Shown here in pieces: positions 6,047-37,750 of a DNA stretch of 64,000 nucleotides. The stretch lies in assembly GCA_041674285.1 (NCBI GenBank), contig JBAYVZ010000001.1:10167-74166 (forward strand), written 5' to 3'. Origin of the DNA: Minisyncoccota bacterium (lineage in GTDB: Bacteria; Patescibacteriota; Minisyncoccia; Phycocordibacterales; UBA9973). Each line of letters opens with the position of its first letter. Positions within the stretch are counted from its first letter, which is position 1. The notes beneath the pieces are model-generated. The model saw only the letters and a list, made by a program, of their open reading frames with translations. It was not told the DNA's origin and ran no database searches. The position numbers and the translations under genes are program-made.

Positions 6047-9000
6047 ATGAAAAATTTTGGACATAAAATAATTTCTTTGATTCTTTTGGTTGTACTACTG
6101 ATAACAAGTGGTTTTTTTGTTGATAATATAAAAAAAGCAAAAGCATCTAATTCAAAAACAGTTACAGTTACTTTTCGTACCACTCCAACTACTGCAACCG
6201 TTGCAAAAGCTCCACTGAAATATAATAAGGATTTTGCTTTTAGTTTTCAGATGGATGATGGTAGTGCGGACAACTACGAGAATGGTTTCAAATATATGTA
6301 TGGAGGTACTAGTTCATTATTAGAAGAAAGTTATGGTGGTAAATATTTTACAGATGGATCTGGACGATCTACTGCACTAGCTAGTAAGCCATTTCGTGGT
6401 GACTTTGTTTGGAATTCTCGAAACTATAGTTCAAGTTTTGTAGAGCTACACGCAGCCCTAAATACTCTTACTTGGACAAAACTCCTTGATGCGAATACTG
6501 CAGGATTTGACGTATTGAACCACAGTTGGTCTCATGCTGCTGTGACTACACTAGGGGATAATTATGTTTATGATTATCCTGCGCCACAAGGTGCTACTAC
6601 TCTGGAATCTGGTGGTTATGAATATGAACTTAGTCAAAACGAAGACGAGGTGGCTAGTCACGGGGTGACTATGGCACCACTTGCTATGGTTCCTCCGGCA
6701 GGAGATCATGGATATATAGATCCTGCTTTTTCTACTGGTTACAAGCTCGTAGCCAGTGAGAGTTCGTCTTTTACTTACTCAGGTGGGACGGTTGCTGTAG
6801 ATACGGGTGGTATGAATGTGACTTCGAGTGTAGATTTGGACCATCTTTTTGCTTATCGATATTTTTATGAAGATAGTAGATTTACCCCAAACACCGCTAC
6901 GGCTATCACTACACCCATAGACACACTTGCATCTCGTAGTCGTGGGTCAGATAAATACTGGGCTATTGGTTTTACTCATAGGACGAGTGTGGTCTCTGGT
7001 GGCCTATCAGAATCAAATTATGAATCATTGATGGACCATATTGCTAGTACTTATGGCCGTGATGGGGATGATTCTATCTGGATGGCTCCAGCCGAAGAGG
7101 TGTATGACTATTTATCCACAAAGCAAAATACAACAGTCTCTACAAACACAGTAGGGAATGTTATGACTATTACACTCGACACATCATCTGTACCAGCGTT
7201 GCGACGCGAGGCTCTATCTCTGGTTGTATCTTCTGATGCCGAGATTGAATCTATCGCATATGCTCCCGGAGAATTTACTGCTACTAGTTCAAATATAAAT
7301 ACTGGTCTGATTAATATGGATTGGGGTACTGTATATACAGCCAATGATTTTACCCGTGTAGAAACATTAGTATCCGCTGCTGAATCTAGTCGTGCGCAGT
7401 CTGACATCGATATCGCTACTACTTATGTCGCTATGTTGCCAGCAAGTGTTGAGAAAAATAATTTTACTAGTAGGTTAAATAATATTGTTGTTTTAGGTCA
7501 GCGATGGTTGATCAATCTGGGTATCAATAGTGCAGGCAAATTACAAGACACAGTAGTGGGTAGTGAGACAGAGAATCTTTGGTGGAATGAGATAAATTTA
7601 GTTTCCAATACTGGTTCAAATCAGACATCACCCATACTAGTAGACACTGCAAATGTAAATACTAGTCTTACTGTAGTTTTACCTCAATCTACTACTACAA
7701 ATTCTTGGGTAAAACCAGGAGCGGGTAGTGAGGGTCAGACTACTGTCACAGACGGTGATGGGGCTTATCCAAATGCTAAAATGCAAAAAGGTCTTTATAT
7801 CAGTAACGCAACAGAAACTTCACCTGTTGTTCAGATTCATAATCTTGACCCTGTAAAGAAATATAAGGTCACAATTTTTGGTTCTACAAAAAATTTAAAT
7901 AGCGGAAAAACTACGTCAAATATTGCAGTTCAGGGTGTATCTCAGGGTCCGTATCAGCATTATAATAATACAAGTAATACTTTAATATTTAGTTCCGTTT
8001 CTCCTACTGTTAGTGGGGTTATAGAGATTGTTATGACTCCTGTGAATCCAGCTTGGAGCGTGACTCCTATAAATGTCATCGATATCAGTGAGGTCACTCC
8101 TGCATTGCCAACTATAACTTTTAATTCTCAATCTCTACGCAGTCAGATTAGTGGGCTTGTTGATTACGGATATACTATTACTGATGACAATAGTGATCCT
8201 ATTTCCCTTATGAGCTATCAATACTCTGCCACCGGTGCATTTAATGGCGAGGAAGCGACTGCTACTCCAAAATCAAGCGACGGTCTTCATGATGGAATTT
8301 CTTCTTTGACTTCTTCTCCTGCGGGTGTTGCTCATGATTTCGTATGGGATGCTATTACTGATTTACTTGGACAAGAGGGAACTTTTTATCTAAGACTCCG
8401 ACCACAGAATCTATCCTCTGATGGGTCATATTCAATTGCTACTCCAGTCGCTCTCGATTTCAAGAACCCCGTACAGACTAGTATCGGCGCTACGACAACT
8501 TCATCTACTGCAAGTATCACTTGGACTACCCAAGAGATCGCGTATGGATTGGTGGAGTATGGTACTACGGATTCATATGGATCAAGTGTAGGATCCTTGT
8601 CATCTGGTACAGCGGTATTGAGTCATGATTTTGATTTGACTGGATTAGATGCTTGTACTACTTATCACTACCGTGTGTCTTCTCGAGATAGTGTGGGTAA
8701 CAATACCGTATCATCTGATCAGACGATGCATACAGCTGGATGCCCTGATCCTGTAGCTAGTCCTGTGGCTGGATTGTATAATGCGACTCAATCAGTGACA
8801 CTATCTGCTACTGGATCTTCTTCTATTCGCTATTCGACAACTAGTACCCCAGCTGATTGTTCTGCTGGTACTCTGTATAGTGGCGCGATATCTGTAGCAT
8901 CAGATACTACTATATATGTACGTGCTTGTGATATTTCAAACAATTCAACTACTGGTAGTTTCCTCTATACTATAGATTCCGAAGCCCCATCTACACCAGC

Positions 9001-25715: not shown

Positions 25716-27536
25716 ATGGACATAAAGCATATAAGAAATTTTAGTATCATCGCTCATATTGATCACGGTAAGAGTACCCTTGCAGACCGCATGTTAGAAG
25801 TGACGGGCACTATTGAGGCGCGTAAAATGAAGGATCAAGTTCTAGATTCTATGGAATTGGAGCGCGAGCGAGGTATTACGATCAAGATGCAGCCTGTACG
25901 TATGGAGCATAAAGTTGATGGTGAAAAATACATTTTAAACCTCATCGATACACCCGGGCACATCGACTTCTCATATGAGGTATCCCGTGCCCTGAAGGCC
26001 GTAGAAGGCTCTATATTGCTCGTAGACTCGACTCAGGGCGTACAGGCTCAGACACTCACTACTCTACAGATGGCTCGCGATTCTGGCCTTGTAATCATCC
26101 CTGTATTGTCCAAGATTGATTCACCACTATCTCGTGTAGATGAGGTAAAAATGGAAGTAGCAATACTTCTTGATATTGACCCAGATACTATCATGCTGGT
26201 CTCTGGCAAGACTGGTGACGGAGTTGCAGATCTTTTGAATGAGATTGTGAATCGTGTACCGCCTCCGACTTTTGAAGTAGCCACTGATAAGAATACAAAT
26301 AGTGCTCTTGTGTTTGACTTTAAATACGACAATCATCGTGGGGTCATCGTCTATGTCCGTGTATTTGGTGGATCATTTAAAAAAGGTGACTATCTAAAAT
26401 TCGCAGTATCAGATGAGCAGTTTATTGCTCTTGAGGTAGGGACATTTTCCCCCGAAGAGAATCCAAAAGATAGTCTAGTAAGTGGAGAGATTGGTTATAT
26501 CGTCACAGGTATTAAAAAGCCAGGTATAGCATCTGTCGGAGACACTGTCACAAATTCCAAGAACGGTGCGACAGCTCTGCATGGATATATGAATCCTCGT
26601 CCTGTAGTATGGGCGTCTGTATATCCTGAATCTGCAGATGATTTTACAAATCTAAAAGCTGCACTCGGCAAGCTGCGTCTTTCTGACTCTGCATTTTCAT
26701 ATGAAGAAGAGACATCTGGTACTCTCGGTCGTGGTTTTCGTTGCGGGTTCCTCGGCATGCTTCACCTTGAGATTATCACAGAGAGATTGTCTCGCGAATT
26801 TGACTTGCAGTTGATTGTGACGATGCCATCTATTACATACAAAGTATTATTGAGAAATGGAAAAGAAGAGACTATATATTCACCACACCTTTTCCCAGAC
26901 GATAGTAGTGTAGTAAAAGTTTTCGAGCCATGGATACACGTAAAGATTATCGCACCACTATCTTATGTAGGAGTGTTGATGCCATTTTTATTTGAACACG
27001 AGGCAGATATCAAGATGACTGAGAATTTTGGAGACAACAGAACCCAGGTCACAGTAGATATGCCTCTACGTGAATTGATGAGAAATTTCTTTGATGATCT
27101 TAAATCTCTGACTTCAGGATACGGATCTATCTCTTATGAGATGGATGAATACCGTGAGGCAGATGTAGTGCGTCTAGATATCATCGTAGCAGATGAGCCA
27201 GTGGTGGCATTCTGTCGTGTTGTGTCTCGTCGTCGTGCCGAAGATGAAGCAAGAGATCAGGTGGAGAGATTAAAGAAGGTAATCCCTCGTCATCAGTTTG
27301 CATTTAAAATCCAAGGCAAGGCCCTAGGCCGAATCATCGCATCTGAGTCTGTATCAGCCTACCGTAAAGATGTATTGATGCATGGTAGTAAGGTAGTAGG
27401 AGGTGGAGATATTAGTCGCAAAAAGAAACTATTGGAAAAACAAAAGAAGGGTAAGGCTCGCCAAGCTGAAAATGGAAAAGTGAACATAACCCAGGACGTA
27501 TTCCTAAAAATGATGCGCAGTGGTGGAGGTAAGTAA
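25716..27536 (+). CDS. lepA: Elongation factor 4 (LepA)
   Basis: IRNFSIIAHIDHGKSTLADR, DTPGHIDF, LepA C-terminal domain; 606 aa. Confidence 0.92.
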   Translation: MDIKHIRNFSIIAHIDHGKSTLADRMLEVTGTIEARKMKDQVLDSMELERERGITIKMQPVRMEHKVDGEKYILNLIDTPGHIDFSYEVSRALKAVEGSILLVDSTQGVQAQTLTTLQMARDSGLVIIPVLSKIDSPLSRVDEVKMEVAILLDIDPDTIMLVSGKTGDGVADLLNEIVNRVPPPTFEVATDKNTNSALVFDFKYDNHRGVIVYVRVFGGSFKKGDYLKFAVSDEQFIALEVGTFSPEENPKDSLVSGEIGYIVTGIKKPGIASVGDTVTNSKNGATALHGYMNPRPVVWASVYPESADDFTNLKAALGKLRLSDSAFSYEEETSGTLGRGFRCGFLGMLHLEIITERLSREFDLQLIVTMPSITYKVLLRNGKEETIYSPHLFPDDSSVVKVFEPWIHVKIIAPLSYVGVLMPFLFEHEADIKMTENFGDNRTQVTVDMPLRELMRNFFDDLKSLTSGYGSISYEMDEYREADVVRLDIIVADEPVVAFCRVVSRRRAEDEARDQVERLKKVIPRHQFAFKIQGKALGRIIASESVSAYRKDVLMHGSKVVGGGDISRKKKLLEKQKKGKARQAENGKVNITQDVFLKMMRSGGGK

Positions 27537-27566
27537 AAAGAGCCCAAATGGGCTCTTTTTACTTAT
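27537..27566 (+). terminator. Intrinsic terminator after lepA
   Basis: aaaagagcccaaatgggctctttttact: GC stem plus T-run. Confidence 0.7.
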
Positions 27567-27711
27567 ACAATAAAACGTTATTATAAATTGAATATTGGCA
27601 TGTAAAGCATTATCATACTTACTATAACTAGTATAGATATTATGGTAAATACCAATCTCATCCTCTTTTGGCTTTTTGCGCTGAAAATCATGTTATAATC
27701 ATATCAGAAAT

Positions 27712-28089
27712 ATGGAAGAATTCAAGAAGAAAAAAATGAATACCTTTTGGCACTCTCCATTATCGCTAATAGTGCTGTTTTTGATTTTTGTAATTTTTGC
27801 TTATAATATGGTGGGTTTATTTATAAAAGAAAGAGAAACTGCCAAGACCAAGGCTCTTGTTTTAGATAAAATGAATTCCCTCCAAGAGAGGGAGAAGTCT
27901 TTATCAGAATCAATCGAGCAATTAAAAACAGAAAAGGGGTCTGAAGTTTTAATAAGAGATAAATATCAAGTCGTAAGACCTGGCGAAAAAATGCTCGTGA
28001 TTGTAGACAAAGCAGAATTAGAGACTGAAGAAACTGAAAACACAAAAGAGCACGGTTTTTTAAATTGGTTTAAGAATTTGTTTAAATAA
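27712..28089 (+). CDS. FtsB/DivIC-like septum formation initiator (single TM plus coiled coil)
   Basis: N-terminal TM then coiled coil, ending ...LIRDKYQVVRPGEKMLVI, typical of FtsB/DivIC C-termini. The true start is possibly the internal Met at 27736. Confidence 0.4.
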   Translation: MEEFKKKKMNTFWHSPLSLIVLFLIFVIFAYNMVGLFIKERETAKTKALVLDKMNSLQEREKSLSESIEQLKTEKGSEVLIRDKYQVVRPGEKMLVIVDKAELETEETENTKEHGFLNWFKNLFK

Positions 28090-28112
28090 GAATTATTTAA
28101 AATAATAATCTG

Positions 28113-28183
28113 CGGGATTAGTTTAGTGGTAGGACGCGACCTTCCCAAGGTTGAGTCACGGGTTCGATTCCCGTATACCGCAC
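28113..28183 (+). tRNA. tRNA-Gly (anticodon CCC)
   Basis: Cloverleaf gcgggat-ta-gttt agtggt aggac-g-cgacc ttCCCaa ggttg-agtc-acggg ttcgatt cccgt-ataccgc-a. No encoded CCA. Confidence 0.8.
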
Positions 28184-28208
28184 TAGCTTTATAATTAATT
28201 TATTTTAT

Positions 28209-28592
28209 ATGAATTTACAAGAAGTAAAAAATGAAGATGGAAAGAGTGGTAGTCCGGTATTACCAGCAGGTACGAAGAATTATCTGATTGATATTGACGG
28301 AACTGTGTGTGAGGATATACCAAATGAAGAGCCAGAGAGATTCGCTACTGCATATGAGCTACCCGGTGCACGAGATTTTGTGAATAATCTATATGATGCG
28401 GGGCATATAGTGACATTCTTTACTTCACGCAAGGAGGATCATCGAGCGCCTACTGAAGAGTGGCTGGATGGTCATGGATTTAAATATCACGGTATAGTAT
28501 TTGGAAAACCACGAGGAGGGAACTATGTATGGATAGACAATGCAGACTTGGAGGCTATACAGTATAAGGGTGAATTTAAGGACTTGATTTAA
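28209..28592 (+). CDS. HAD-superfamily phosphatase-like small protein (deoxyribonucleotidase/PNK-phosphatase-like)
   Basis: Motif I LIDIDGTV and motif II VTFFTSR; 127 aa. Confidence 0.4.
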   Translation: MNLQEVKNEDGKSGSPVLPAGTKNYLIDIDGTVCEDIPNEEPERFATAYELPGARDFVNNLYDAGHIVTFFTSRKEDHRAPTEEWLDGHGFKYHGIVFGKPRGGNYVWIDNADLEAIQYKGEFKDLI

Positions 28593-28628
28593 GGGTCATT
28601 GTGTCAAGTGTTGCGCGAAAATTTTTTA

Positions 28629-28637
28629 TGATATAAT
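28629..28637 (+). promoter_or_regulatory. Extended -10 promoter element TGATATAAT upstream of the glutaredoxin-like gene
   Basis: tgatataat lies 60 nt upstream of the start. The same TGnTATAAT element recurs before many genes in this window (6024, 10226, 11895, 27686, 33540, 35146). Confidence 0.5.
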
Positions 28638-28698
28638 AAATTTCCAAACTTATTAATTAATTATGCCTAAACCCTAACGGGTCGGCCGAGAAAAATAT

Positions 28699-28938
28699 AT
28701 GAGTACAGTTACAGTATATAGCACACCGACATGTCATTTTTGCCACATGGCAAAAGATTACTTCAAGGAGAACAATGTAGCATTTGAAGATTTTAATGTT
28801 TCAGAGGATTTAGGCAAAAGACAAGAGATGATCCAAAAGAGTGGTCAGATGGGTGTACCAGTAATCATCATTGATGATAAATTAATCGTAGGATTCAATA
28901 AGCCTCAAATAGCAGAGTTGCTAGGAATCAAAGAATAG
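28699..28938 (+). CDS. Glutaredoxin/NrdH-like redoxin
   Basis: CxxC active site TPTCHFCH, thioredoxin-fold pattern GVPVIIID, 79 aa. Confidence 0.7.
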   Translation: MSTVTVYSTPTCHFCHMAKDYFKENNVAFEDFNVSEDLGKRQEMIQKSGQMGVPVIIIDDKLIVGFNKPQIAELLGIKE

Positions 28939-28990
28939 TAAAATTTTTTATTCTGTAGTATTATAAAAGCGCCTATATAGGCGCTTTTAT

Positions 28991-29062
28991 GCCCTCATAG
29001 TTCAATGGATATAACAGTTCCGTCCTAAGGAATAGATGTAGGTTCGATTCCCGCTGAGGGCA
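28991..29062 (+). tRNA. tRNA-Arg (anticodon CCU)
   Basis: Acceptor gccctca/tgagggc, anticodon arm gttcc-gtCCTaa-ggaat, T-loop ttcgatt. D-stem is 3 bp with one T-stem mismatch. Confidence 0.75.
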
Positions 29063-29070
29063 CAAATTAA

Positions 29071-29100
29071 AAAATCTCCATTTGGGAGATTTTTTAATTT
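29071..29100 (+). terminator. Perfect hairpin terminator downstream of tRNA-Arg
   Basis: aaaaaatctcc-atttg-ggagatttttt (11-bp stem with flanking A and T runs; potentially bidirectional). Confidence 0.7.
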
Positions 29101-29332
29101 GTGCCCGAAAGCAATCAAACTGCTTTGATTGCGTGCGGGAATCGAAGACCTTTTCCATATGAGCGTACTCGCGAATGGAAACGGTGTACTGATCCTGTAA
29201 GGATCGACATGCCCTAAAGGATTAGTATTTGTATATAATCGCTCTACTCTTATACAAATACTGAACGTACTCGCGGTCAGGGTGAGGGCACACTATCGTT
29301 TTTAATTTTATATTTGTTATAATTAAAAAATA

Positions 29333-29629
29333 ATGGAAGATCCACAAATTAAAAAATTATTAGAAGAAAATCTCGAGCTTGCAAAAGAGAATAATGAATT
29401 ATTGAAAAAAGTTCGCAATACTCAAAAGCTAGCTCAGATATATCGTATCGTTTACTGGGTAGTTATTATAGGTGCTTCATATGGGGCGTACTATTTTGTA
29501 CAGCCATATATAGGCGGTATCTTAGATGTATATAGTGGCGGAGGATTAGACTCCTTGAATTCAGGGGGGATGAATGGTGTCCCTGACCTAAATAGTCTAC
29601 AAGGGTTGCTCGAAAGTCTACAAAAATAA
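29333..29629 (+). CDS. Hypothetical small membrane protein
   Basis: Coiled-coil N-terminus, one TM (IVYWVVIIGASYGAYYFV), Gly-rich C-terminus; followed by the terminator aaacacccgtatgggtgtttta. Confidence 0.4.
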   Translation: MEDPQIKKLLEENLELAKENNELLKKVRNTQKLAQIYRIVYWVVIIGASYGAYYFVQPYIGGILDVYSGGGLDSLNSGGMNGVPDLNSLQGLLESLQK

Positions 29630-29717
29630 AACACCCGTATGGGTGTTTTATCTTATAAAATAGGGAATTGATAAATATTAAAAAATCTGGTAATATCAGA
29701 TTACGTCTTTTGAGGCA

Positions 29718-29913
29718 TGCCTGGATAGCTCAGTTGTAGCGTCCCCGCAAAGAGCATTGAAGTTGTTACGTTTAATATAAAGAAATACGCCTGGATAGCT
29801 GTTTTGGTGGATAACGCAAAATTGTTGTAAAGGTTTAAATAATGCCTGGATAGCTCAGTTGTAGCGTCCCCGCAAAGAGCATTGAAGTTGTTACGTTTAA
29901 TATAAAGAAATAC
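29718..29913 (+). repeat. Array of tRNA-Phe 5'-fragment repeats: two 70/71-nt units plus a degenerate 55-nt unit, each starting with the first 12-18 nt of tRNA-Phe
   Basis: Units at 29718-29787 and 29843-29913 are identical except for 1 nt; the degenerate unit at 29788-29842 begins gcctggatagctg. All start gcctggatagct(cagttg), which is the acceptor/D-arm 5' end of the downstream tRNA-Phe. Confidence 0.7.
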
Positions 29914-29986
29914 GCCTGGATAGCTCAGTTGGTAGAGCGCTCCCCTGAAGAGGGATAGGTCCCCAGTTCAAATCTGGGTCCAGGCA
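29914..29986 (+). tRNA. tRNA-Phe (anticodon GAA)
   Basis: gcctgga-ta-gctcagttggtagagc-g-ctccc ctGAAga gggat-aggtc-cccag ttcaaat ctggg-tccaggc-a; canonical Phe anticodon loop CTGAAGA. Confidence 0.85.
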
Positions 29987-30277
29987 CAACAACCCGACTT
30001 TTGTCGGAAGCAACAAAATTTTCACGGGCGGCGCATAGCGCCGACCAAGGATTTTCGCCTGATTTATATGAAATCCTTCAAAGGTTTTCTTAATTGTAAT
30101 TTTAGAACAAATTAATTATTGCCCTTGCGATTGTTTTTTGGATAATCTGTAGTATGGACATATTATTTTAATATAGTATAGTCTAACTAATATTTGTTTA
30201 TTTGAAAAAGTTTAAAGTGTAGTCACAGTAGAGGATTTACCCCCTTTTGTGACCACACTTTAAATAAAATAACTGTT

Positions 30278-30604
30278 ATGAAAACGACCAAAAGAATTGC
30301 CAATCCTGGTAGTAAAACACCTCAAGAAATTTTGGATAATATTCAAAAAGGCTTGAGCAGCCAAAAGATGATTATAAAATTTATAAATTTTGATTTTTTA
30401 TTGAAGAATCAATTCTTTATTAATTTTAGTTTTGAAACATCCACTGGTACAAAAGTAAAGGGCGCACTCGTTGTTTATCTTCAGAAAAGTCTGCTGGAAA
30501 TTTCAGTTGATTCAGAAGAAACTACAAGGGCTGAATTGATTTTTGGCATTGTAAAAAGTATTATCAGTAGGGCAATAAATGGAAACCCTATTGGAGTGAA
30601 TTAA
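30278..30604 (+). CDS. Hypothetical protein
   Basis: 108-aa ORF with no recognisable motifs; preceded by a 17-bp inverted repeat. Confidence 0.3.
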   Translation: MKTTKRIANPGSKTPQEILDNIQKGLSSQKMIIKFINFDFLLKNQFFINFSFETSTGTKVKGALVVYLQKSLLEISVDSEETTRAELIFGIVKSIISRAINGNPIGVN

Positions 30605-31252
30605 ATTAAAATCTGATTGCTCAGCGACACAAAAATTGTTCGTTGGGCAATTTTTGTATATTTTTTTGTTTCTATTGATCTAAAAAATAGAAACCTCAAC
30701 AGTTTTTAGTTGTCTGTTGAAAAAATAGACTACTTGTCATATTTTTACTTACTTAGTGCATGGTTATTAGTAAAAAATATGGTCATGTGTTCACATATAC
30801 ATTAATAACGGATGTTTAATAAGTACGATAAACCGCTAAAGTAGGAGCTTCCTATTTTGGCGGTTTCTATTTGCCAAGCTGGGCGCGGCTTGCATTAAAA
30901 TTTATATATGTTATATATAAAACATGTTCAGAAGTATCAACAAATCAGTCGTGGTGGTCAACCTTTCATTTGAAGGCTGATTTTTGCGTTGACATTCACT
31001 TAAACTAACTCAAAACAAACACCAGCCTTCAAATGAAGCTGGTGTTTGTTTTCGTATCAGTATTCCCAGGGTGTCATGAACCCCTGGGAATGGTGGTCCG
31101 AAAGGCCGCTAGAGCAAAAATGCTCTATTCATCTAGGCTATATGCCGAAGATGAACGGGAGTATGAATATACTCACCAAAACAATTCGTAATAAGGTGAC
31201 AAAGACACCTCTATGCTCTTTGACAAAAGAATAAAAATTTAAAAAATAGAAT

Positions 31253-32704
31253 ATGATTACGCAAACTACTGATATATTGCAAATGTTATTACTGAGTTAC
31301 TTTAATTCGAAATTTTCTCCAAACACTAAGAAATCCTATTTTTTAGGCGAGCTTGAGTTGGACAAGAAAATAGCAATGGCAAAAGGTACAAGGTATAGAT
31401 CTTGGGCAACGATAGCACCTAACTGGTATGCCAATACTGCCATATCAAGGCCTCACATGGAATTTGTAAACAAACCCAAGAAAACTTATCAAAAATTGGT
31501 GAAATTAATTTCTGCTACGACCCAGAAAAACTTGAGAGAAATAGATAAAATATATCGGGAAAAAATAACTAGTTGTGTTGAAATAATTAGAGATATATTC
31601 AATGAACCAGACGCTAACGTTATTTTTGAAAGTAATGGAACAATGGCTCTGGCCTTCATAAGGGCACTCTCTGGAGCTGAAGGACAAAAAGTTATTTCAA
31701 CGAGCGATATGGGCAGAATAGCAGGATTAGCATTACAAGGGCAAGATACCTCTATAGCTAAGGAAGATTTCAAACAACAGATCGGCTTGTTCTCACCGAG
31801 CGGAAAATTAGATAAAATAATACATTCTCAATACTTTGAGGTTGATTTATACAATGAAGACCGACCAAAAACAATTGATCAAATTTGTATTGAGTTATTT
31901 GAAACAGTAAAGCAGGAAAAACCCAAGCTGGTTATCGTTCCCCAAGTAAGCCGTACAGGAATAAAATTGCCGGTGGAAAAGATCGGAAGATTTATAAAAC
32001 AAATTAACAGGCAGCAAGGTTTAAGCATTTTTTTTGCAGTTGACGGAGCTCAAGCAATTGGCAGGTCAAATTCTGAAGATCTCAAAAAGCCTCTTAAATA
32101 TTGTGATGCATATTTTTTTGTAGGGCAAAAAGCACTCGGGTCAATGACACTAGCGGCGATCATGGTGAAGTCAGATTTTGTCAAAAATAATGCGAAAAGT
32201 TTAATAAATTCAAGTATTACTCCTCGGTTGTGCTGTTATAAATTTTTTGAACTGCCAACTGAAATAAAAAGTTTTATGCAAAAAAGAGGAGGAAATTTTG
32301 CGATATCTCTTCCCGAAATCGAATCGTTGGATCTATCTCTGAGGGCATTTTATCAAAGAGGTGAAGGGGGAACTTTCAAGGAAAGGAGAAAATACCAAAT
32401 CTCAAGAACTATAAAAATAAATTCCTTTATTGTCTCAGAATTAAGTAAAATAAGAGGAATTAAAGTTTTCACTACTACGGAAGACACTCCTTTAAGTCCA
32501 AGTATTATTATCTTTACTGTAATCGAAGGAAATGGAGTAGGTGCAGAAACATTAAGGCAGAAACTTCAAGAACTTCACTCTCCGATTACCTTTGCCCCGA
32601 TCTACCAGAGACCGATTTTAAGAATTGGCCTTAGTGAACTTCGTGAGCAGGATATAAATTATCTTATTACTTCAATCAAAAAAATTGTACATTGTAAAAA
32701 ATAA
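31253..32704 (+). CDS. PLP-dependent enzyme, aminotransferase class V fold (cysteine desulfurase/epimerase-like)
   Basis: FFAVDGAQAIGR (vDaaQs.G-like) and the candidate PLP-lysine region FFVGQKALGSMTLAAIMV; 483 aa. Confidence 0.45.
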   Translation: MITQTTDILQMLLLSYFNSKFSPNTKKSYFLGELELDKKIAMAKGTRYRSWATIAPNWYANTAISRPHMEFVNKPKKTYQKLVKLISATTQKNLREIDKIYREKITSCVEIIRDIFNEPDANVIFESNGTMALAFIRALSGAEGQKVISTSDMGRIAGLALQGQDTSIAKEDFKQQIGLFSPSGKLDKIIHSQYFEVDLYNEDRPKTIDQICIELFETVKQEKPKLVIVPQVSRTGIKLPVEKIGRFIKQINRQQGLSIFFAVDGAQAIGRSNSEDLKKPLKYCDAYFFVGQKALGSMTLAAIMVKSDFVKNNAKSLINSSITPRLCCYKFFELPTEIKSFMQKRGGNFAISLPEIESLDLSLRAFYQRGEGGTFKERRKYQISRTIKINSFIVSELSKIRGIKVFTTTEDTPLSPSIIIFTVIEGNGVGAETLRQKLQELHSPITFAPIYQRPILRIGLSELREQDINYLITSIKKIVHCKK

Positions 32705-32705
32705 A

Positions 32706-32745
32706 ACCAAAAGCCGAGGAATCTAAATACCTCGGCTTTTCTTGT
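32706..32745 (+). terminator. Intrinsic terminator
   Basis: aaaagccgagg-aatctaaata-cctcggctttt followed by a T-run. Confidence 0.7.
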
Positions 32746-33064
32746 TTTAGAGTAATCCAGTATTCGCTGTTTACAGTTTGAAGCGAAAATAAAATCTTGA
32801 ATTTATTGTTCAGAAAAAAATCAAAATCCTCCATATTTTGTTTGGGTTAATTTTTATTTACACAATGAGCACTTTTATCTTAAAGATACCTTTTTCTGTG
32901 GATTCAAAAGTGTAATCATTGAATTATCTAATAGAGCCTATCAATTTAATCCACATAAAAAAATTCATTTTGAATATCATCACCTGGTAACATCGAGGTT
33001 GACCTAAATTATTAAAAAGCTCTGGGGATCCAATTGTGTATTAAATCCCTCTCTTAAAAAATCA

Positions 33065-33418
33065 TTACAATATCCGTGTTCCATTTTCAACCGACTTGGC
33101 TAAATTGAGCAATACAGTTCCAGCTGTACTAGATACTGCCGCCAATACCAAGCATTCTGATTTAACACCAGCTATCTTTTTAGGTGGAAAATTTAAAACC
33201 GCAATAATTTGCTTACCGAGTAGGTTTTCAGGAGAATAGTTTTCGGTAATTTGAGCAGAACTCTTTTTTATACCATAAGCACCAAAATCAATTTCTAAAA
33301 CATAAGCAGGTTTAATTGCTTTCTCATTTAAGCTTACACTTAATATTGTTCCAACATACATACCTATTTTTAAAAAATCAGTAAATTCAATTTGCGAAAG
33401 ATTTTCCACTTTTATCAT
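33065..33418 (-). CDS. CsaA/YgjH-like tRNA-binding domain protein (EMAP/Trbp111 fold)
   Basis: FLKIGMYVGTILSV...PAYVLEIDFGAYG...GKQIIAVLNFPPKKIAGVKSECLVLAA matches the PF01588 tRNA_bind pattern. Confidence 0.7.
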   Translation of the reverse strand: MIKVENLSQIEFTDFLKIGMYVGTILSVSLNEKAIKPAYVLEIDFGAYGIKKSSAQITENYSPENLLGKQIIAVLNFPPKKIAGVKSECLVLAAVSSTAGTVLLNLAKSVENGTRIL

Positions 33419-33556
33419 AACATTATTATATCCCTAATTTAATGAAATTGAAATATCTCGATACCAAATTAAATTTAGCTCGTAATAGTTATCAAAGGCA
33501 TCTATAAATAATAAAAAAACCGATGTGAAAACCACATTTATGGTATAATTATATTT

Positions 33557-33985
33557 ATGAATGAAAATAAATTTCCTATACCTCATTTAAACCTTGACGA
33601 AAATAAAAAATTACTTGAAAAAGAAGGTGAAGAGAGGTGTGCAGATTGGTTGGCTCGTTTTCCAGAAAAAGTAGTGTCTACAGAAGAAAGACGAGATGCG
33701 GAGAAAGAGATTATGGAATTTGAAGGATTTATTATAAATTTTGAGAAAACACATTCTTTATCAGAATTAAATAAGATTATTGACCTTAATCCAGAAGATT
33801 CACCAAATCACCCCCTCAGAGAGCCTGCTCGATTAGCACTAATACCTATCGTTACACTGATCAGTACTTTAAAAAATGAAACAGATATATCTGAAGAAAA
33901 ACTCAAAGAGCTAAAATCTAAATACATGATATTATCTAGGGCTGTTGGAATGATTAATAAAAATAAAGTAGATCATAATAGGTAA
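33557..33985 (+). CDS. Hypothetical protein
   Basis: 142-aa acidic ORF; tggtataat promoter 9 nt upstream. Confidence 0.35.
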   Translation: MNENKFPIPHLNLDENKKLLEKEGEERCADWLARFPEKVVSTEERRDAEKEIMEFEGFIINFEKTHSLSELNKIIDLNPEDSPNHPLREPARLALIPIVTLISTLKNETDISEEKLKELKSKYMILSRAVGMINKNKVDHNR

Positions 33986-34089
33986 TTTGGAATGAATTAA
34001 ATTAAAACTGATTGTTCAGGACAAAAATTGTTCTGAGTAATTTTTGTTTATATTTTATAGTATTCTATTTTTATTTGTTATATAATTTG

Positions 34090-34617
34090 ATGGTGACAGA
34101 GATACAAATTACAAATCAAAATAGAAAAAGAGCCCTTATGGTTGTCGATGTTCAAGCAGGGTTTTTAAATGATCAAAATCGTTGGATTATTCCCAATATT
34201 CAGAAAGTAGTTCAGAACGGGAAATACAATTTAATTATTGAATCAATTTTTCATGCGGAAGCTGGGTCTTTGTGGGATAGGCAGACAAATTGGACATTTC
34301 CACTACAACCAACAGTTCCAGAAATCAAGAATCTTTTTAACCAAGATTCTGTTTTAATTACTAAAGAAACGAAATCAGTATTCAAGGGAGATAAAGATTT
34401 ATTTCAAATACTAAAAGATAAAAACATAGAAGAAGTACATATTGTTGGTCTTGATACTAATGACTGCGTATTTGCCACAGCACAAGAATCCTTTGACCTT
34501 GGCTTTTTTACTTATGTCATTGAAGAATGCACCGAATCAAGTCAGAGTTCTGAACTTCGTGACTGTGCATTGAAAATCTTAAGGGAATTAAATATGACTA
34601 CTAATTTAATTAAATAA
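34090..34617 (+). CDS. Isochorismatase-family (cysteine hydrolase) protein
   Basis: RALMVVDVQAGFLN and HIVGLDTNDCVFATAQESFDLGF match conserved isochorismatase hydrolase motifs. The annotated upstream start at 34012 is an alternative codon giving a poor N-terminus. Confidence 0.7.
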   Translation: MVTEIQITNQNRKRALMVVDVQAGFLNDQNRWIIPNIQKVVQNGKYNLIIESIFHAEAGSLWDRQTNWTFPLQPTVPEIKNLFNQDSVLITKETKSVFKGDKDLFQILKDKNIEEVHIVGLDTNDCVFATAQESFDLGFFTYVIEECTESSQSSELRDCALKILRELNMTTNLIK

Positions 34618-34633
34618 GGTGTAATTATTTTTT

Positions 34634-35155
34634 ATGAATTTTACAAATCAAAAAACTGAAGATACTTTAAAGAAAAAAACAATAAAAGCTTTAAATTGGA
34701 TTGTGAATATTTTGAACGAACACAAAATCGACTACGTTGTCAGTGGAGGATTTTCAGCAAAACTGTATAGTTCAAAGCGTGAATTACATGATATTGATAT
34801 AGATATTTTTGAAAACAAATTTGATGAATTATTATCAGAAATATCTAAATATATAACCTATGGCCCAGATAGATATAAGGATGGCAAATGGGATATGAAT
34901 CTGATTACTCTTAATTATGGAGGTCAGGAAATAGATATAGGTGATTTATCGGATGCGTATATAAGCAATAAAGAAAGAACGGCATGGATTAAATTAGAAA
35001 ATAAACTTGAGCCCGTTAAAATGACTGTGGGAGGAATAGAAGTAAATGTAATTAATCCTCAGGATTTAATAAATTACAAAAAAAATTTGGATGGTGATCA
35101 TCAATTGGAGGATATTAAGTCGGTGGAAGCATATATTAAAAATATAATGTTATAA
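34634..35155 (+). CDS. Lnu(A)/LinA-like nucleotidyltransferase (lincosamide/aminoglycoside nucleotidyltransferase family)
   Basis: IDYVVSGGFSAKLYSSKRELHDIDIDIF aligns with the Lnu(A) core (WLDGGWGVDVLTGKQQREHRDIDIDF from memory); 173 aa. Confidence 0.5.
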   Translation: MNFTNQKTEDTLKKKTIKALNWIVNILNEHKIDYVVSGGFSAKLYSSKRELHDIDIDIFENKFDELLSEISKYITYGPDRYKDGKWDMNLITLNYGGQEIDIGDLSDAYISNKERTAWIKLENKLEPVKMTVGGIEVNVINPQDLINYKKNLDGDHQLEDIKSVEAYIKNIML

Positions 35156-35162
35156 TTATATT

Positions 35163-35468
35163 ATGTTATATCCATATATTACATGGCTTACAATATTTGT
35201 TTTCATCCCCTCAATAATCCTCTGGGTTTTTAATTTTAAATATCTTAAAAAATACAGTAAGGTTATTTTATTTGTAGCCATTGGTGCATTTGTATGGGGA
35301 TTCTGTTTTGATATTGTTGGAAGTGTCTTTTGGCATACTTGGACATATCACAATACATTCGGACCATGGCTCCTAGGATTACCACTAGAGGAGTATTTGA
35401 TCTTACTCACTCTTCCTCAAGAACTGACAATCATAGTATTATTAATGAGAAAGAAAATATATGGATAA
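35163..35468 (+). CDS. Lycopene-cyclase-domain small membrane protein (CrtYc-like half)
   Basis: 3-TM 101-aa protein with the PLEEY motif (GLPLEEYLILLTLPQE). Confidence 0.4.
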   Translation: MLYPYITWLTIFVFIPSIILWVFNFKYLKKYSKVILFVAIGAFVWGFCFDIVGSVFWHTWTYHNTFGPWLLGLPLEEYLILLTLPQELTIIVLLMRKKIYG

Positions 35469-35781
35469 ATATACTTATTTTATTTTAAATACTTTATTTT
35501 TCTGTCCAATGATTCTCTTTTTATTACTTAGATATAAAGATATAATTTTTGCTCGAATAAAGTTTATTCTTCTCTCGGGTCTTCTTGGCGGCGTATTGTT
35601 TTTTATAATTGACTTACCAGCTACTCGCTGGGGTGCATGGTCTATGAATTATGAAAAAACTATCGGACCCATGTTCGGTGGTAGTGTGGTTGAGGAATTG
35701 ATCTGGGTTATCCTAGTTATGATAATTATTGCCTCTATGGTTGAGGTATTTTTAGCGAAAATTGACAAAAAATCTCTATAA
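35461..35781 (+). CDS. Lycopene-cyclase-domain small membrane protein (CrtYd-like half)
   Basis: 3-TM 106-aa protein overlapping the previous gene by 8 nt; motif GGSVVEELIWVIL. Confidence 0.4.
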   Translation: MDKYTYFILNTLFFCPMILFLLLRYKDIIFARIKFILLSGLLGGVLFFIIDLPATRWGAWSMNYEKTIGPMFGGSVVEELIWVILVMIIIASMVEVFLAKIDKKSL

Positions 35782-35816
35782 AGTATTATGAAGAAAAATC
35801 TTTAAATATACAGATT

Positions 35817-36272
35817 ATGAGAATAATAATTAAAAAATCAAAAGTTTCTGATTCAAATGAAATTAGGCTCCTTGAGACGAAAATTTGGGGTGAAGAAGTC
35901 ACTAATAAATATGATATGCCTATGATTATTCGTTTTGGTTATGTTTTTGTTGCTTGTGATGGTAAAAAAATCATAGGTAGTATTTCAAGCTATAGAACAA
36001 ATAAGAATGAAGTATATGTATGTGATATCGTTGTAGATGAGGAATACAGAGGCAATCGTATAGGTGAAAGACTGTACAACAGGCTTTTAAATGAAGTGTA
36101 CGGCACGAATGTTGTGTCTTTCTTGGATCCAGACAGGACAGCAACGCTAGAATTGCATAAAAAACTCGGAGCAAAAGTAATCAAAAAAATGAATAATGTT
36201 TATTCTTTAGATGGTGAAGATTCTAATTTAGAACAAGGCAAGAGGCTTTTTGTTAGGATTGAGAATAAGTAA
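35817..36272 (+). CDS. GNAT family N-acetyltransferase
   Basis: Motif A VDEEYRGNRIGERLYNRLLNE; 151 aa. Confidence 0.7.
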   Translation: MRIIIKKSKVSDSNEIRLLETKIWGEEVTNKYDMPMIIRFGYVFVACDGKKIIGSISSYRTNKNEVYVCDIVVDEEYRGNRIGERLYNRLLNEVYGTNVVSFLDPDRTATLELHKKLGAKVIKKMNNVYSLDGEDSNLEQGKRLFVRIENK

Positions 36273-36684
36273 AAATAATAAAACCCAGAATTTTAGTTTC
36301 TGAGCTTTGTTTTTTAGGTTTAATTTATATATTAAAACGGTTACCGACCCAGATGCCATATTAAGATATTGCTGTATGTATCATGAGATGATATAATATT
36401 CTAGAATAGCTGATGCTCAATAGGTTGTTCAAACTTGTCAAAGGCACCCTTTCTTGCTGGTTAGGGTGTCTTTTTTATTTGTACACGTTTTATTTTATGT
36501 AAAGAAGGCTATTTTGTAATAAAAAAAATCACCCTTTCGAGTGATTCTTTATTAATTTGGATTCTTCCTTCCTAGCAAAATTTTCAGTTCTGATAATAGA
36601 TTGAGTAATAAATTAACCTTGGGTTGACATGAGTATGTTTTAGGTGTAATCTAAAAAAGAATTCACCAAATAATACGTAACATT

Positions 36685-36936
36685 ATGGAAATCATTTTAG
36701 ATGAAAAAAGCATCAAAGCTTCTGGTCGTCCAGGCCAACCAGGAAACACTCCTGCAGCATTAGTTAAGCGCTTCAAGGCTAAACTTTTAAAAATGGGTAA
36801 TTTTATGGGTGCTGATAAAATTGAGCACCAAGAACGCCACAAAAAAGAGGTGTACATTATTACCAAAGGAGAAAATCGCCTAGTTATAACTGCACATGGT
36901 GGCGGTTCTGACGGAGGTTGGCTTGGGGTAGAGTAA
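36685..36936 (+). CDS. Hypothetical small basic protein
   Basis: 83-aa ORF followed by the hairpin terminator aaggtt...aacctt plus T-run. Confidence 0.3.
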   Translation: MEIILDEKSIKASGRPGQPGNTPAALVKRFKAKLLKMGNFMGADKIEHQERHKKEVYIITKGENRLVITAHGGGSDGGWLGVE

Positions 36937-37719
36937 AAAGAGAAGGTTGGATCATTTGGTCTAACCTTTTATTTTTTTTCAACGAGTTCATGTTCATTGT
37001 TTGACATGTAAGTTTTTTATGATAGGATGTAACTAATCTTATCTTTCAGTAATCAATAGGGTAAGCTTAAAACCAGAGCCTCGGTCATTTCGGTGATCGA
37101 GGTTTTTTTGTTTCTGATATGTAGGAGGTAAGAGAGCAACAATAATTGCTATTATTTCTATTGGAGTTATAGTTGGAATTGCTCAAATTTATGCTCAACT
37201 ATGTTTTTAAGCCACTCTATATATTATACTACAAAACAAGGTAAAATGCAAGTTGAATTGCCTTGCATTATAAGGGTGTTTTGAGATAATACCTGTATGA
37301 CAGATGGAATAACACCCAACAAAGAAACCCATATTATTGAGTCCTCAAATGAGCCTGTCGTATACTTTAACATAACATAATAATGAACATGAAAAAGAAA
37401 AATTATTTATACATTACATCAATTATATTTTTAATTGTGGGTCTCGTGCATTTTTTAAAAATATTAACTGTTTTTGAAATACAGATAGCAGGTCAAGAAT
37501 ATCCACTTTGGCTTAGTTGGATTGAAATGATTATTGCATTGTATTTATCTTTTCTTGGTTTTCATTTGAGTAAAAAATAATAGATTTAAAGGGAGTGTTC
37601 TCGCTATTTTAAGAATTTTTAATAAAATAGGTTCGAGCGAAGTCATATAACCACCCACGATAGTTTTTATAAAGTTGGAATCTTTCGACATCCTTAGTCT
37701 AGGCATCACGATATAAATA

Positions 37720-37750
37720 AAACCCCGCAATTGCGGGGTTTTATTTATAT
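37720..37750. terminator. Bidirectional intrinsic terminator
   Basis: aaaaccccgcaattgcggggtttt lies between convergent genes. Confidence 0.75.

Follow-up and report, generated by a model that had tools for sequence, protein, structure and literature searches.

Tandem pseudo-copies of a tRNA 5' part precede the tRNA-Phe gene of a Candidatus Paceibacterota bacterium and belong to a class of leader arrays in Patescibacteria

The window analyzed here is a 64-kb stretch of chromosome from a Candidatus Paceibacterota bacterium (Patescibacteria, candidate phyla radiation (CPR)), a name taken from the National Center for Biotechnology Information (NCBI) record of an identical protein of 98 amino acids (aa). 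All window coordinates refer to this stretch. In it, the intact tRNA-Phe(GAA) gene is directly preceded by three tandem units that each begin as a copy of the gene's own 5' end and then degenerate. Arrays of this kind form a class, pseudo-5'-halves in the leaders of tRNA genes, and this one is genuinely part of it. On balance it probably goes back to local partial tandem duplications remodeled by unequal exchange and was not left by integrating elements, an account that leaves considerable room for doubt.

The tRNA-Phe gene and its array

The order at the locus is candidate promoter, unit A of 70 nucleotides (nt), unit B of 55 nt, a second 70-nt unit A and the intact tRNA-Phe(GAA) gene. Four copies of the 12-mer GCCTGGATAGCT lie on the + strand of the 64-kb window, at 29719, 29789, 29844 and 29914, where 0.15 would be expected by chance and none of 100 shuffles reached four matches. 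An earlier note on this DNA had described the array as built from the 5' end of tRNA-Phe with the intact gene directly after it, and the four copies, one of them heading the 55-nt unit, bear this out. The same note gave the two long units as 70 and 71 nt with one difference; in fact both are 70 nt and 100% identical.

Unit A1 (29719–29788, + strand) reproduces tRNA nt 1–18 exactly, tracks the tRNA in degenerate form to about position 39 and closes with a 34-nt AT-rich tail. Read directly from the sequence, its D arm carries 1-nt deletions, giving CAGTTG-TAG-CG-TCCCC. The head of this unit also occurs in the related loci L002, L006, L262 and L264. Unit B (29789–29843, + strand) consists of tRNA nt 1–12 followed by GTTTTGGTGGATAACGC, again read directly, and a tail; it is identical to its counterpart at 55 of 55 positions in L264 and at 52 of 55 in L002. 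Unit A2 (29844–29913, + strand) repeats A1. A perfect 84-nt direct repeat with a spacing of 125 nt (29717–29800 versus 29842–29925) spans these borders, so the composite of A and B was duplicated. An independent assembly, L001, is 99.86% identical to the window and carries the identical array.

The tRNA-Phe(GAA) gene itself (29914–29986/7, + strand; CCA not encoded) is recognized by ARAGORN and by Rfam RF00005 with 68.2 bits. It differs at 5 of 73 positions, in the T loop and the acceptor, from the allele shared by L002, L005, L006 and L262. Tandem Repeats Finder run on 29–31 kb did not report the array. An Rfam 15 cmscan of 27500–31500 (E ≤ 1) gave no match to any family for 29697–29913. Further tRNA-Phe fragments were sought across the window, and none was found besides the four heads and a 3' half at 37674–37708; a degenerate whole-tRNA-Phe pattern gave 0 matches in species-representative genomes.

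The junctions at 29717–29728 and 29842–29853 both read ATG CCT GGA TAG, a two-codon mini-ORF (open reading frame) that ends at U8-A9-G10 of the tRNA. As positions -2/-1 are AT and the tRNA begins with G, this is probably a trivial result of tRNA sequence rules.

Array states among relatives

Orthologous loci were fetched via homologues of the 98-aa ORF that flanks the array. In the window and in L001 (100% aa identity of the flanking ORF) the state is promoter-A-B-A-tRNA. It is promoter-A-tRNA within an inverted cassette in L262 (96%), promoter-A-B-tRNA in L002 (88%) and promoter-B-A up to the contig end in L264 (81%). L005 (75%) has promoter-tRNA with no unit in an inverted cassette, L006 (65%) promoter-A-tRNA, likewise inverted, L010 (61%) two B units and L007–9 (48%) at least three identical 70-nt B units. 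Units are also missing from L014–17 and L020. These copy numbers may be underestimates, as short-read assemblies break or may collapse arrays: contigs end within unit arrays in L003, L004, L008, L009, L012, L013, L263 and L264, and L007 has a run of N at 6380–6480.

The heads co-vary with the acceptor of the local tRNA. They read GCCTGGA in the window and L264, GCCTAGA in L002, L006 and L262, and GCTCAGA in L007.

Promoter, units, tRNA and a 3' pseudo-half together make up a cassette that lies between two similar palindromic terminators (window 29623–37747). Its left border is the terminator-like hairpin of the upstream 98-aa ORF (29623–29654, + strand; AAAATAAAACACCC/GGGTGTTTTATCTT, inverted repeat I1), which has 14-nt arms that are 93% complementary and is kept in relatives. 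The right border is the palindromic terminator of the convergent Hsp20 gene (37716–37747; AAATAAAACCCCGCAATTGCGGGGTTTTATTT). Relative to the window, L002 and L264, the cassette is inverted in L005, L006 and L262. The flanking ORF of L262 is 96% identical to that of the window, but its cassette is nearly identical to those of the distant L006 (65%) and of L005. This disagreement between cassette similarity and flanking ORF suggests that cassettes are inverted and exchanged between the flanking palindromic terminators.

The downstream insertion and the 3' pseudo-half

In L002, L006, L010, L014 and L262, the 98-aa ORF and the tRNA-Phe cassette are followed directly by Hsp20, PrsW and LeuRS. Window 29988–37660, from the tRNA to the 3' pseudo-half, is therefore a 7.7-kb insertion that these five relatives lack, and BLAST homology picks up again at 37660/37661. 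The earlier note was thus right that the array adjoins a variable region. Pfam scans of this island show a 108-aa ORF, an aminotransferase-V-like gene, a tRNA_bind protein, an isochorismatase, a nucleotidyltransferase, two lycopene-cyclase-like genes, a GNAT gene and small ORFs. Its GC content is 0.30–0.34 versus about 0.37.

Beyond the island lies a degenerate tRNA-Phe 3' half (37674–37708, + strand; gttggaatctttcgacatccttagtctaggcatca), made up of a T-arm-like segment and GTCTAGGCATCA. The earlier note expected a tRNA-Phe fragment at the distal end of the island, and one is present there, but it is a 3' half and it is older than the island: an orthologous fragment lies 23–26 nt after the tRNA in the island-free L002, L006 and L262, and that of L262 carries the same 12-nt trailer as its tRNA. 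The 3' half resembles the product of a partial tandem duplication at the gene's 3' side. Another candidate 3' fragment, even more degenerate and at about 37630–37660, was considered and dropped as not significant (p = 0.25).

The note went further and took the 5' fragments for scars of repeated integration and excision at tRNA-Phe, linked to the downstream island. The locus is indeed a rearrangement hot spot, with the 7.7-kb insertion, the displaced-looking 3' half, the cassette inversion and the allele exchange, and other tRNAs in the phylum are accompanied by elements of 100–220 nt that have a copy of the tRNA 3' end at their border. The note had named island-free relatives carrying the array as one finding that would overturn this reading, and they do carry units: L002 has A and B (35/36 and 52/55 identical), and L262 and L006 have A. 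Unit presence does not correlate with the island, and the reading is largely refuted by its own criterion. The units are 5' parts that lie upstream at 55–70-nt spacing; the parts that integration moves, to the distal end of the element, are 3' parts (PMC9897764). The two A units are identical, as tandem duplication predicts. A Pfam scan of 30.0–37.7 kb found no integrase domain, and a copy of the window's own tRNA 3' end was sought at the island border without success (p = 0.25). Among the loci collected, all 227 of 227 B-like heads with a tRNA lie within array distance of it on the same strand, 11 orphans all sit at contig ends, and in 0 of 227 cases does a kb-scale element stand between a B-like head and its tRNA. 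The unit pattern was also sought in viral contigs and is absent from them, and a phage origin was rejected on that ground. We therefore consider integration scars very unlikely; the 7.7-kb insertion is an event separate from the 5' array.

Leader units across Patescibacteria

Two scans place the array in a larger class. The genome scan searched species representatives for two D-arm-like sites 45–75 nt apart and returned at least 120 loci; the metagenome scan searched for a B head followed by a D-arm site and returned at least 119 loci, which were picked by the exact B motif, so conservation of positions 8–22 is not readable from them. Class frequencies come from loci chosen for having a unit. 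In most of the genome-scan matches listed, 1–9 fragments stand before a complete same-strand tRNA (Lys, Thr, Phe, Asn, Gly, Val, Ala or Ile).

In Patescibacteria, many tRNA identities are preceded by one to five units, each with nt 1–12 of its own tRNA and then a stereotyped signature that disables the D arm. Units outside Patescibacteria retain CAGTTGGTAG (63 loci among the matches listed). The GTTTTGGTAG variant is present in 33 loci among the matches listed, and all 22 with a name among the 25 itemized are Patescibacteria (Paceibacterota, Nomura-, Taylor-, Kaiser- and Saccharibacteria, Minisyncoccia). Among the metagenome matches listed, the B head precedes tRNA-Phe (22), tRNA-Thr (44) and tRNA-Val (24) as well as Ala, Ile, Lys, Asn and Met tRNAs.

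We define type B as the tRNA's own nt 1–12 followed by GTTTTGGT(A/G)G, at 35–75 nt from the next head or tRNA. Window 29789–29843, with GCCTGGATAGCT followed by GTTTTGGTGG, is of this type, and the motif occurs in >119 metagenome and at least 33 genome loci. Type A is the tRNA's own nt 1–18 followed by TAGCG, that is, CAGTTG-TAG-CG. Units A1 and A2 are of type A, and the same head stands before tRNA-Lys in L044 and L070 and before tRNA-Val in L101 and L106. In the type B signature C13A14G15 becomes GTT and positions 23–25 are biased to R-T-A; G never occurs at 24 or 25. Units follow the D-loop variants of their own tRNA (TAGTAG, GGYTAG) but retain GTTT at positions 13–16. Across the class, tails are 34–75 nt long.

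At least one upstream copy of the gene's own first 11 nt was found for 103 of 235 tRNA genes, in loci that were partly ascertained. Copies of 5' parts occur upstream only and copies of 3' parts downstream only, the asymmetry that partial tandem duplications overlapping a gene end would give.

That the array might be an assembly artefact or resemble clustered regularly interspaced short palindromic repeats (CRISPR) is scarcely credible. Such arrays do often break short-read assemblies, and the genome scan gave at least two false matches, L050 being a CRISPR array and L134 a scaffold-gap duplicate. Against this stand the identical array in the independent assembly L001, the homologous units from many samples and assemblers and in long-read contigs, and the consistent sequence differences between units and tRNA. 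The units derive from the tRNA, A1 equals A2, there are no variable spacers and the repeats exceed any spacer in length, in agreement with the earlier note, which had called the array not CRISPR-like.

Candidate promoter and probable transcription of the units

Upstream of the first unit, a promoter scan located a candidate sigma-70 promoter (29668–29696, + strand), TTGATA-17 nt-TAATAT with TG upstream of the -10 box and 9 of 12 matches. Six relatives keep 24–27 of its 29 nt, always 5' of the first unit or of the unit-less tRNA. Its function as a promoter is predicted from the sequence. A short leader runs from the -10 box to unit A1 (29697–29718, + strand) and is poorly conserved, with 13/26 to 17/22 positions identical to relatives.

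Class-wide, -10-like hexamers peak 8–10 nt 5' of unit-less tRNAs and of first units, with no peak in the unit tails; at the right distance they are found in 2–6% of tails versus 9–15% of the regions upstream of first units and unit-less tRNAs. The units are thus most likely transcribed as leader. The context TAT at -3 to -1 is shared in this comparison.

Could each unit instead be a duplicated promoter with its own -35 and -10 boxes, multiplying tRNA-Phe transcription? By eye, unit B of L002 offers TTGGTG-16 nt-(TGt)TATAAA, a plausible extended -10; the tail in L148/L107 repeats the -10 region of the upstream promoter; and promoter motifs have been discussed for plastid trnF arrays. The scan of the window predicted no promoter within the units, however, and the corresponding hexamer in unit B is TGTAAA in the window and L264, where A-11 is lost although the unit is conserved at 55 of 55 positions. 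Together with the depletion of -10-like hexamers in tails and the inconstant distance from the candidate TTGGTA to the -10 box, this makes duplicated promoters highly improbable.

Two side observations concern the class as a whole. In unit-less CPR tRNA genes, a TANNNT hexamer ends 8–11 nt before +1 in about one third of cases, which implies very short or absent 5' leaders in the phylum. At CPR loci, A at -2 and T at -1 occur in about two thirds of cases, before tRNAs and units alike.

Origin and maintenance of the units

We propose that the start of the tRNA-Phe gene underwent partial tandem duplications long ago, giving rise to the two unit kinds, A and B, which would have been truncated at the 3' side and disabled in the D arm. 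Lying between promoter and gene, the units would be transcribed as a 5' leader of about 210 nt, and the RNase P cut at tRNA +1 would remove it. Slipped-strand mispairing or unequal exchange between the 12–18-nt heads could then change copy number and order, the present A-B-A state being a perfect 125-nt duplication, and the same exchanges would hold the heads identical to the tRNA 5' end by concerted evolution. No integrase would take part in forming the array. Slippage is the presumed mechanism of exchange, and the units would presumably have no sequence-specific function.

Statistics of head identity speak for this account. Heads are identical to their tRNA at nt 1–7 in 131 of 198 cases. When head substitutions are judged by their effect on pairing to the tRNA 3' strand, pairing survives in 21 and is lost in 47, as expected under neutrality, and selection for such pairing was dropped as unsupported. 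Head identity falls with distance from the tRNA, from 79% in the adjacent unit to 63% in the second and 50% in the third, and within arrays divergence is greater in the distal head 13 times and smaller 4 times (p = 0.049). This gradient fits a homogenization that spreads outward from the gene. Taken with the neutral substitutions, it speaks for heads that are reset again and again from the gene, through slippage or unequal exchange, rather than for selection on base pairing.

Several observations weigh against duplication and exchange as the full explanation. In 63 single-unit loci identity ends sharply at +1 (median 2 nt upstream) and nt 1–12 are still identical; with only 12–16 nt of identity, recombinational homogenization should be inefficient. 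The signatures are common to units of Phe, Thr, Val, Ala, Ile, Lys, Asn, Met and Asp tRNAs and recur in both Paceibacteria and Saccharibacteria, which a purely neutral process leaves unexplained. GTTTTGG was found in the D region of 0 of 548 predicted tRNAs in the loci collected, and a real tRNA with such a D loop was accordingly dropped as the signature's source. The heads of units are far better kept than the neighboring leader (35/36 for A, 55/55 and 52/55 for B, versus 13/26 and 17/22), a contrast that is confounded by the evident exchange of cassettes between lineages. In the ViennaRNA ensemble of the window transcript, the A1 head is predicted to capture the 3' acceptor strand with P = 0.39, versus P = 0.55 for the true 5' strand.

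These same observations, together with the D-loop variants that units share with their own tRNA while retaining GTTT at 13–16 and the heads that stay identical though their flanks have randomized, speak for the main alternative, namely that the units are a selected cis element in the pre-tRNA leader or in promoter-proximal DNA, whose copy number sets the strength of its effect. In one version the unit is an unstructured decoy of the acceptor 5' strand that competes for the 3' acceptor strand and so tunes maturation, its D arm deliberately disabled so that the decoy cannot finish the tRNA fold. In the other it is an operator or protein-binding site around TAGCTGTTTTGGTAGRTA. Stated for the phylum, such leader elements would act in cis as unstructured decoys of the tRNA's first 12 nt, whose fixed signature (GUUUUGGUAG-R-U-A or the deletions of type A) disables the D arm, and would set the amount of mature tRNA. 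If so, the decoy would track the acceptor stem of its gene and act either by competing for the 3' acceptor or via a dedicated binding factor, and unit copy number would be an evolvable dial on the mature tRNA amount.

We hold both the selected element and its phylum-wide form to be possible but rather doubtful. The units are dispensable and labile, since L005, L014–17 and L020 have none and their type, number and order differ in close relatives. Conserved structure within the units was sought and not found: the alifold consensus is empty and the acceptor strand gave no pairing signal at any offset, so that a within-unit hairpin using this strand was discarded. The leader plus tRNA of the window folds with z = -0.41, and the centroid shows the cloverleaf only. 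The head substitutions show no bias towards pairing, the divergence gradient from proximal to distal fits passive homogenization, and tail length varies. A processing stem between leader and trailer, formed by 5' units and downstream 3' copies, was rejected as well, because the two are not associated (Fisher p = 0.84). Likenesses of the B head to a DnaA box, Chi, an integron core site and a Cas9 repeat, noted by eye, held for single variants only and were dropped. Partial tandem duplication followed by unequal exchange hence remains the explanation that we prefer.

Neighboring features

Upstream of the array lie an ABC transporter, LepA, DivIC, tRNA-Gly, a HAD-like protein, glutaredoxin, tRNA-Arg and the 98-aa ORF with its terminator hairpin. 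The agreement of L001 (1–1543) with the window breaks off precisely where tRNA-Gly begins (28112), and a 512-aa ORF on the opposite strand takes over there. In L002, L003 and L005 no tRNA-Gly is present between the DivIC and HAD-like genes. The position is either another tRNA-associated breakpoint or an assembly join.

Downstream of tRNA-Arg(CCT) (28991–29063), an element of about 190 nt (29101–29291, + strand) has a fold far from random (z = -4.75). The helix GUGCCC/GGGCAC closes it and has as its 3' strand a copy of the 3' end of tRNA-Arg (GGTGAGGGCAC). On other CPR contigs, homologues of the element are placed 100–220 nt downstream of the Arg, Glu, Lys, Thr, Ser, Leu, Ala, Asp, Val and Phe tRNAs, and each ends in a copy of the last 11–20 nt of its own tRNA. 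A 7-sequence alignment shows compensatory changes in 18 of 22 predicted pairs, and the element has no Rfam match. It is a candidate for a new tRNA-linked structured RNA or for a miniature tRNA-targeting element.

Comparison with known systems

A recent survey of prokaryotic partial tRNA genes traces them to two sources only, the integration of elements and CRISPR spacers (PMC9897764). A third and common source is seen in the leader arrays of 5' pseudo-copies. We found no description of such arrays in bacteria in the literature, which was incompletely covered. The arrays break short-read assemblies and could pass for attachment (att) sites when islands are mapped. In a phylum of ultra-small genomes, a large share of tRNA genes carries at least 35–75 nt of seemingly spare leader, whose stereotyped sequence changes together with the acceptor stem. 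Either concerted evolution at 12-nt repeats is unusually active and precise here, or tRNA expression and processing are subject to an unrecognized layer of control. Saccharibacteria with the same units can be grown in co-culture, and Psychromonas isolates carry related arrays.

Like att-site fragments, the window has a partial copy beside an intact gene, an island that abuts the tRNA and a 3' fragment beyond the island (37674–37708). Classical integration into tRNA genes displaces 3' fragments downstream, according to Williams 2002 as cited in PMC9897764, and puts the duplicated tRNA 3' part at the far end of a kb-scale, usually integrase-encoding element (PMC9897764). Unlike such fragments, the 5' parts of the window stand in tandem at 55–70 nt without an intervening element and are present in island-free relatives.

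Tandem units that hold a piece of a tRNA beside its gene are also known from tyrT of E. coli (rtT/rttR), where they are co-transcribed. The tyrT units are about 178 bp long, lie downstream of the gene and contain the tRNA 3' end. In contrast to the class described here, they are not known to have a phylum-wide signature. One tyrT repeat unit encodes the rttR RNA, as Bosl and Kersten 1991 are cited in PMC3318445.

Arrays in other phyla (L038, L088, L072, L052/L056/L095) likewise place near-identical units before an intact tRNA. They comprise 8 x 71 nt at tRNA-Lys of Chitinophagaceae, 9 x 69 nt at tRNA-Lys of Bacteroidales, 5 x 74 nt at tRNA-Thr of Bryobacterales and units of 75 nt at tRNA-Asn of Psychromonas isolates. 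As in the window, each unit opens with an exact copy of the tRNA 5' end, breaks off ahead of the T arm's 3' strand and finishes with an AT-rich tail, and the units adjoin the intact gene. They retain an intact D arm and have the anticodon arm swapped for a closed hairpin, while the window has kinds A and B with a disabled D arm. The near identity of their copies indicates recent expansions.

By analogy, the closest described counterpart is the pseudogene arrays of plastid trnF. In Brassicaceae, Solanaceae, Asteraceae and others, 1–7 tandem partial copies of 32–73 bp lie directly 5' of the functional trnF(GAA) gene, near sigma-70-type promoter motifs; their copy number varies, and they are ascribed to local duplication or recombination (PMC3786074). 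The window matches this in the tRNA species, in units of 70, 55 and 70 nt that abut the intact gene and in a copy number that varies among relatives, here from 0 to at least 3 with permuted order. In the window, a conserved candidate promoter is predicted 5' of the first unit. Plastid copies usually have no acceptor strands but mostly retain the D, T and anticodon domains, whereas in the window the acceptor 5' strand is the part best kept and tracks the tRNA. The stereotyped disabling of the D arm, repeated before many tRNA identities across a bacterial phylum, further sets the leader units of Patescibacteria apart from the plastid arrays.

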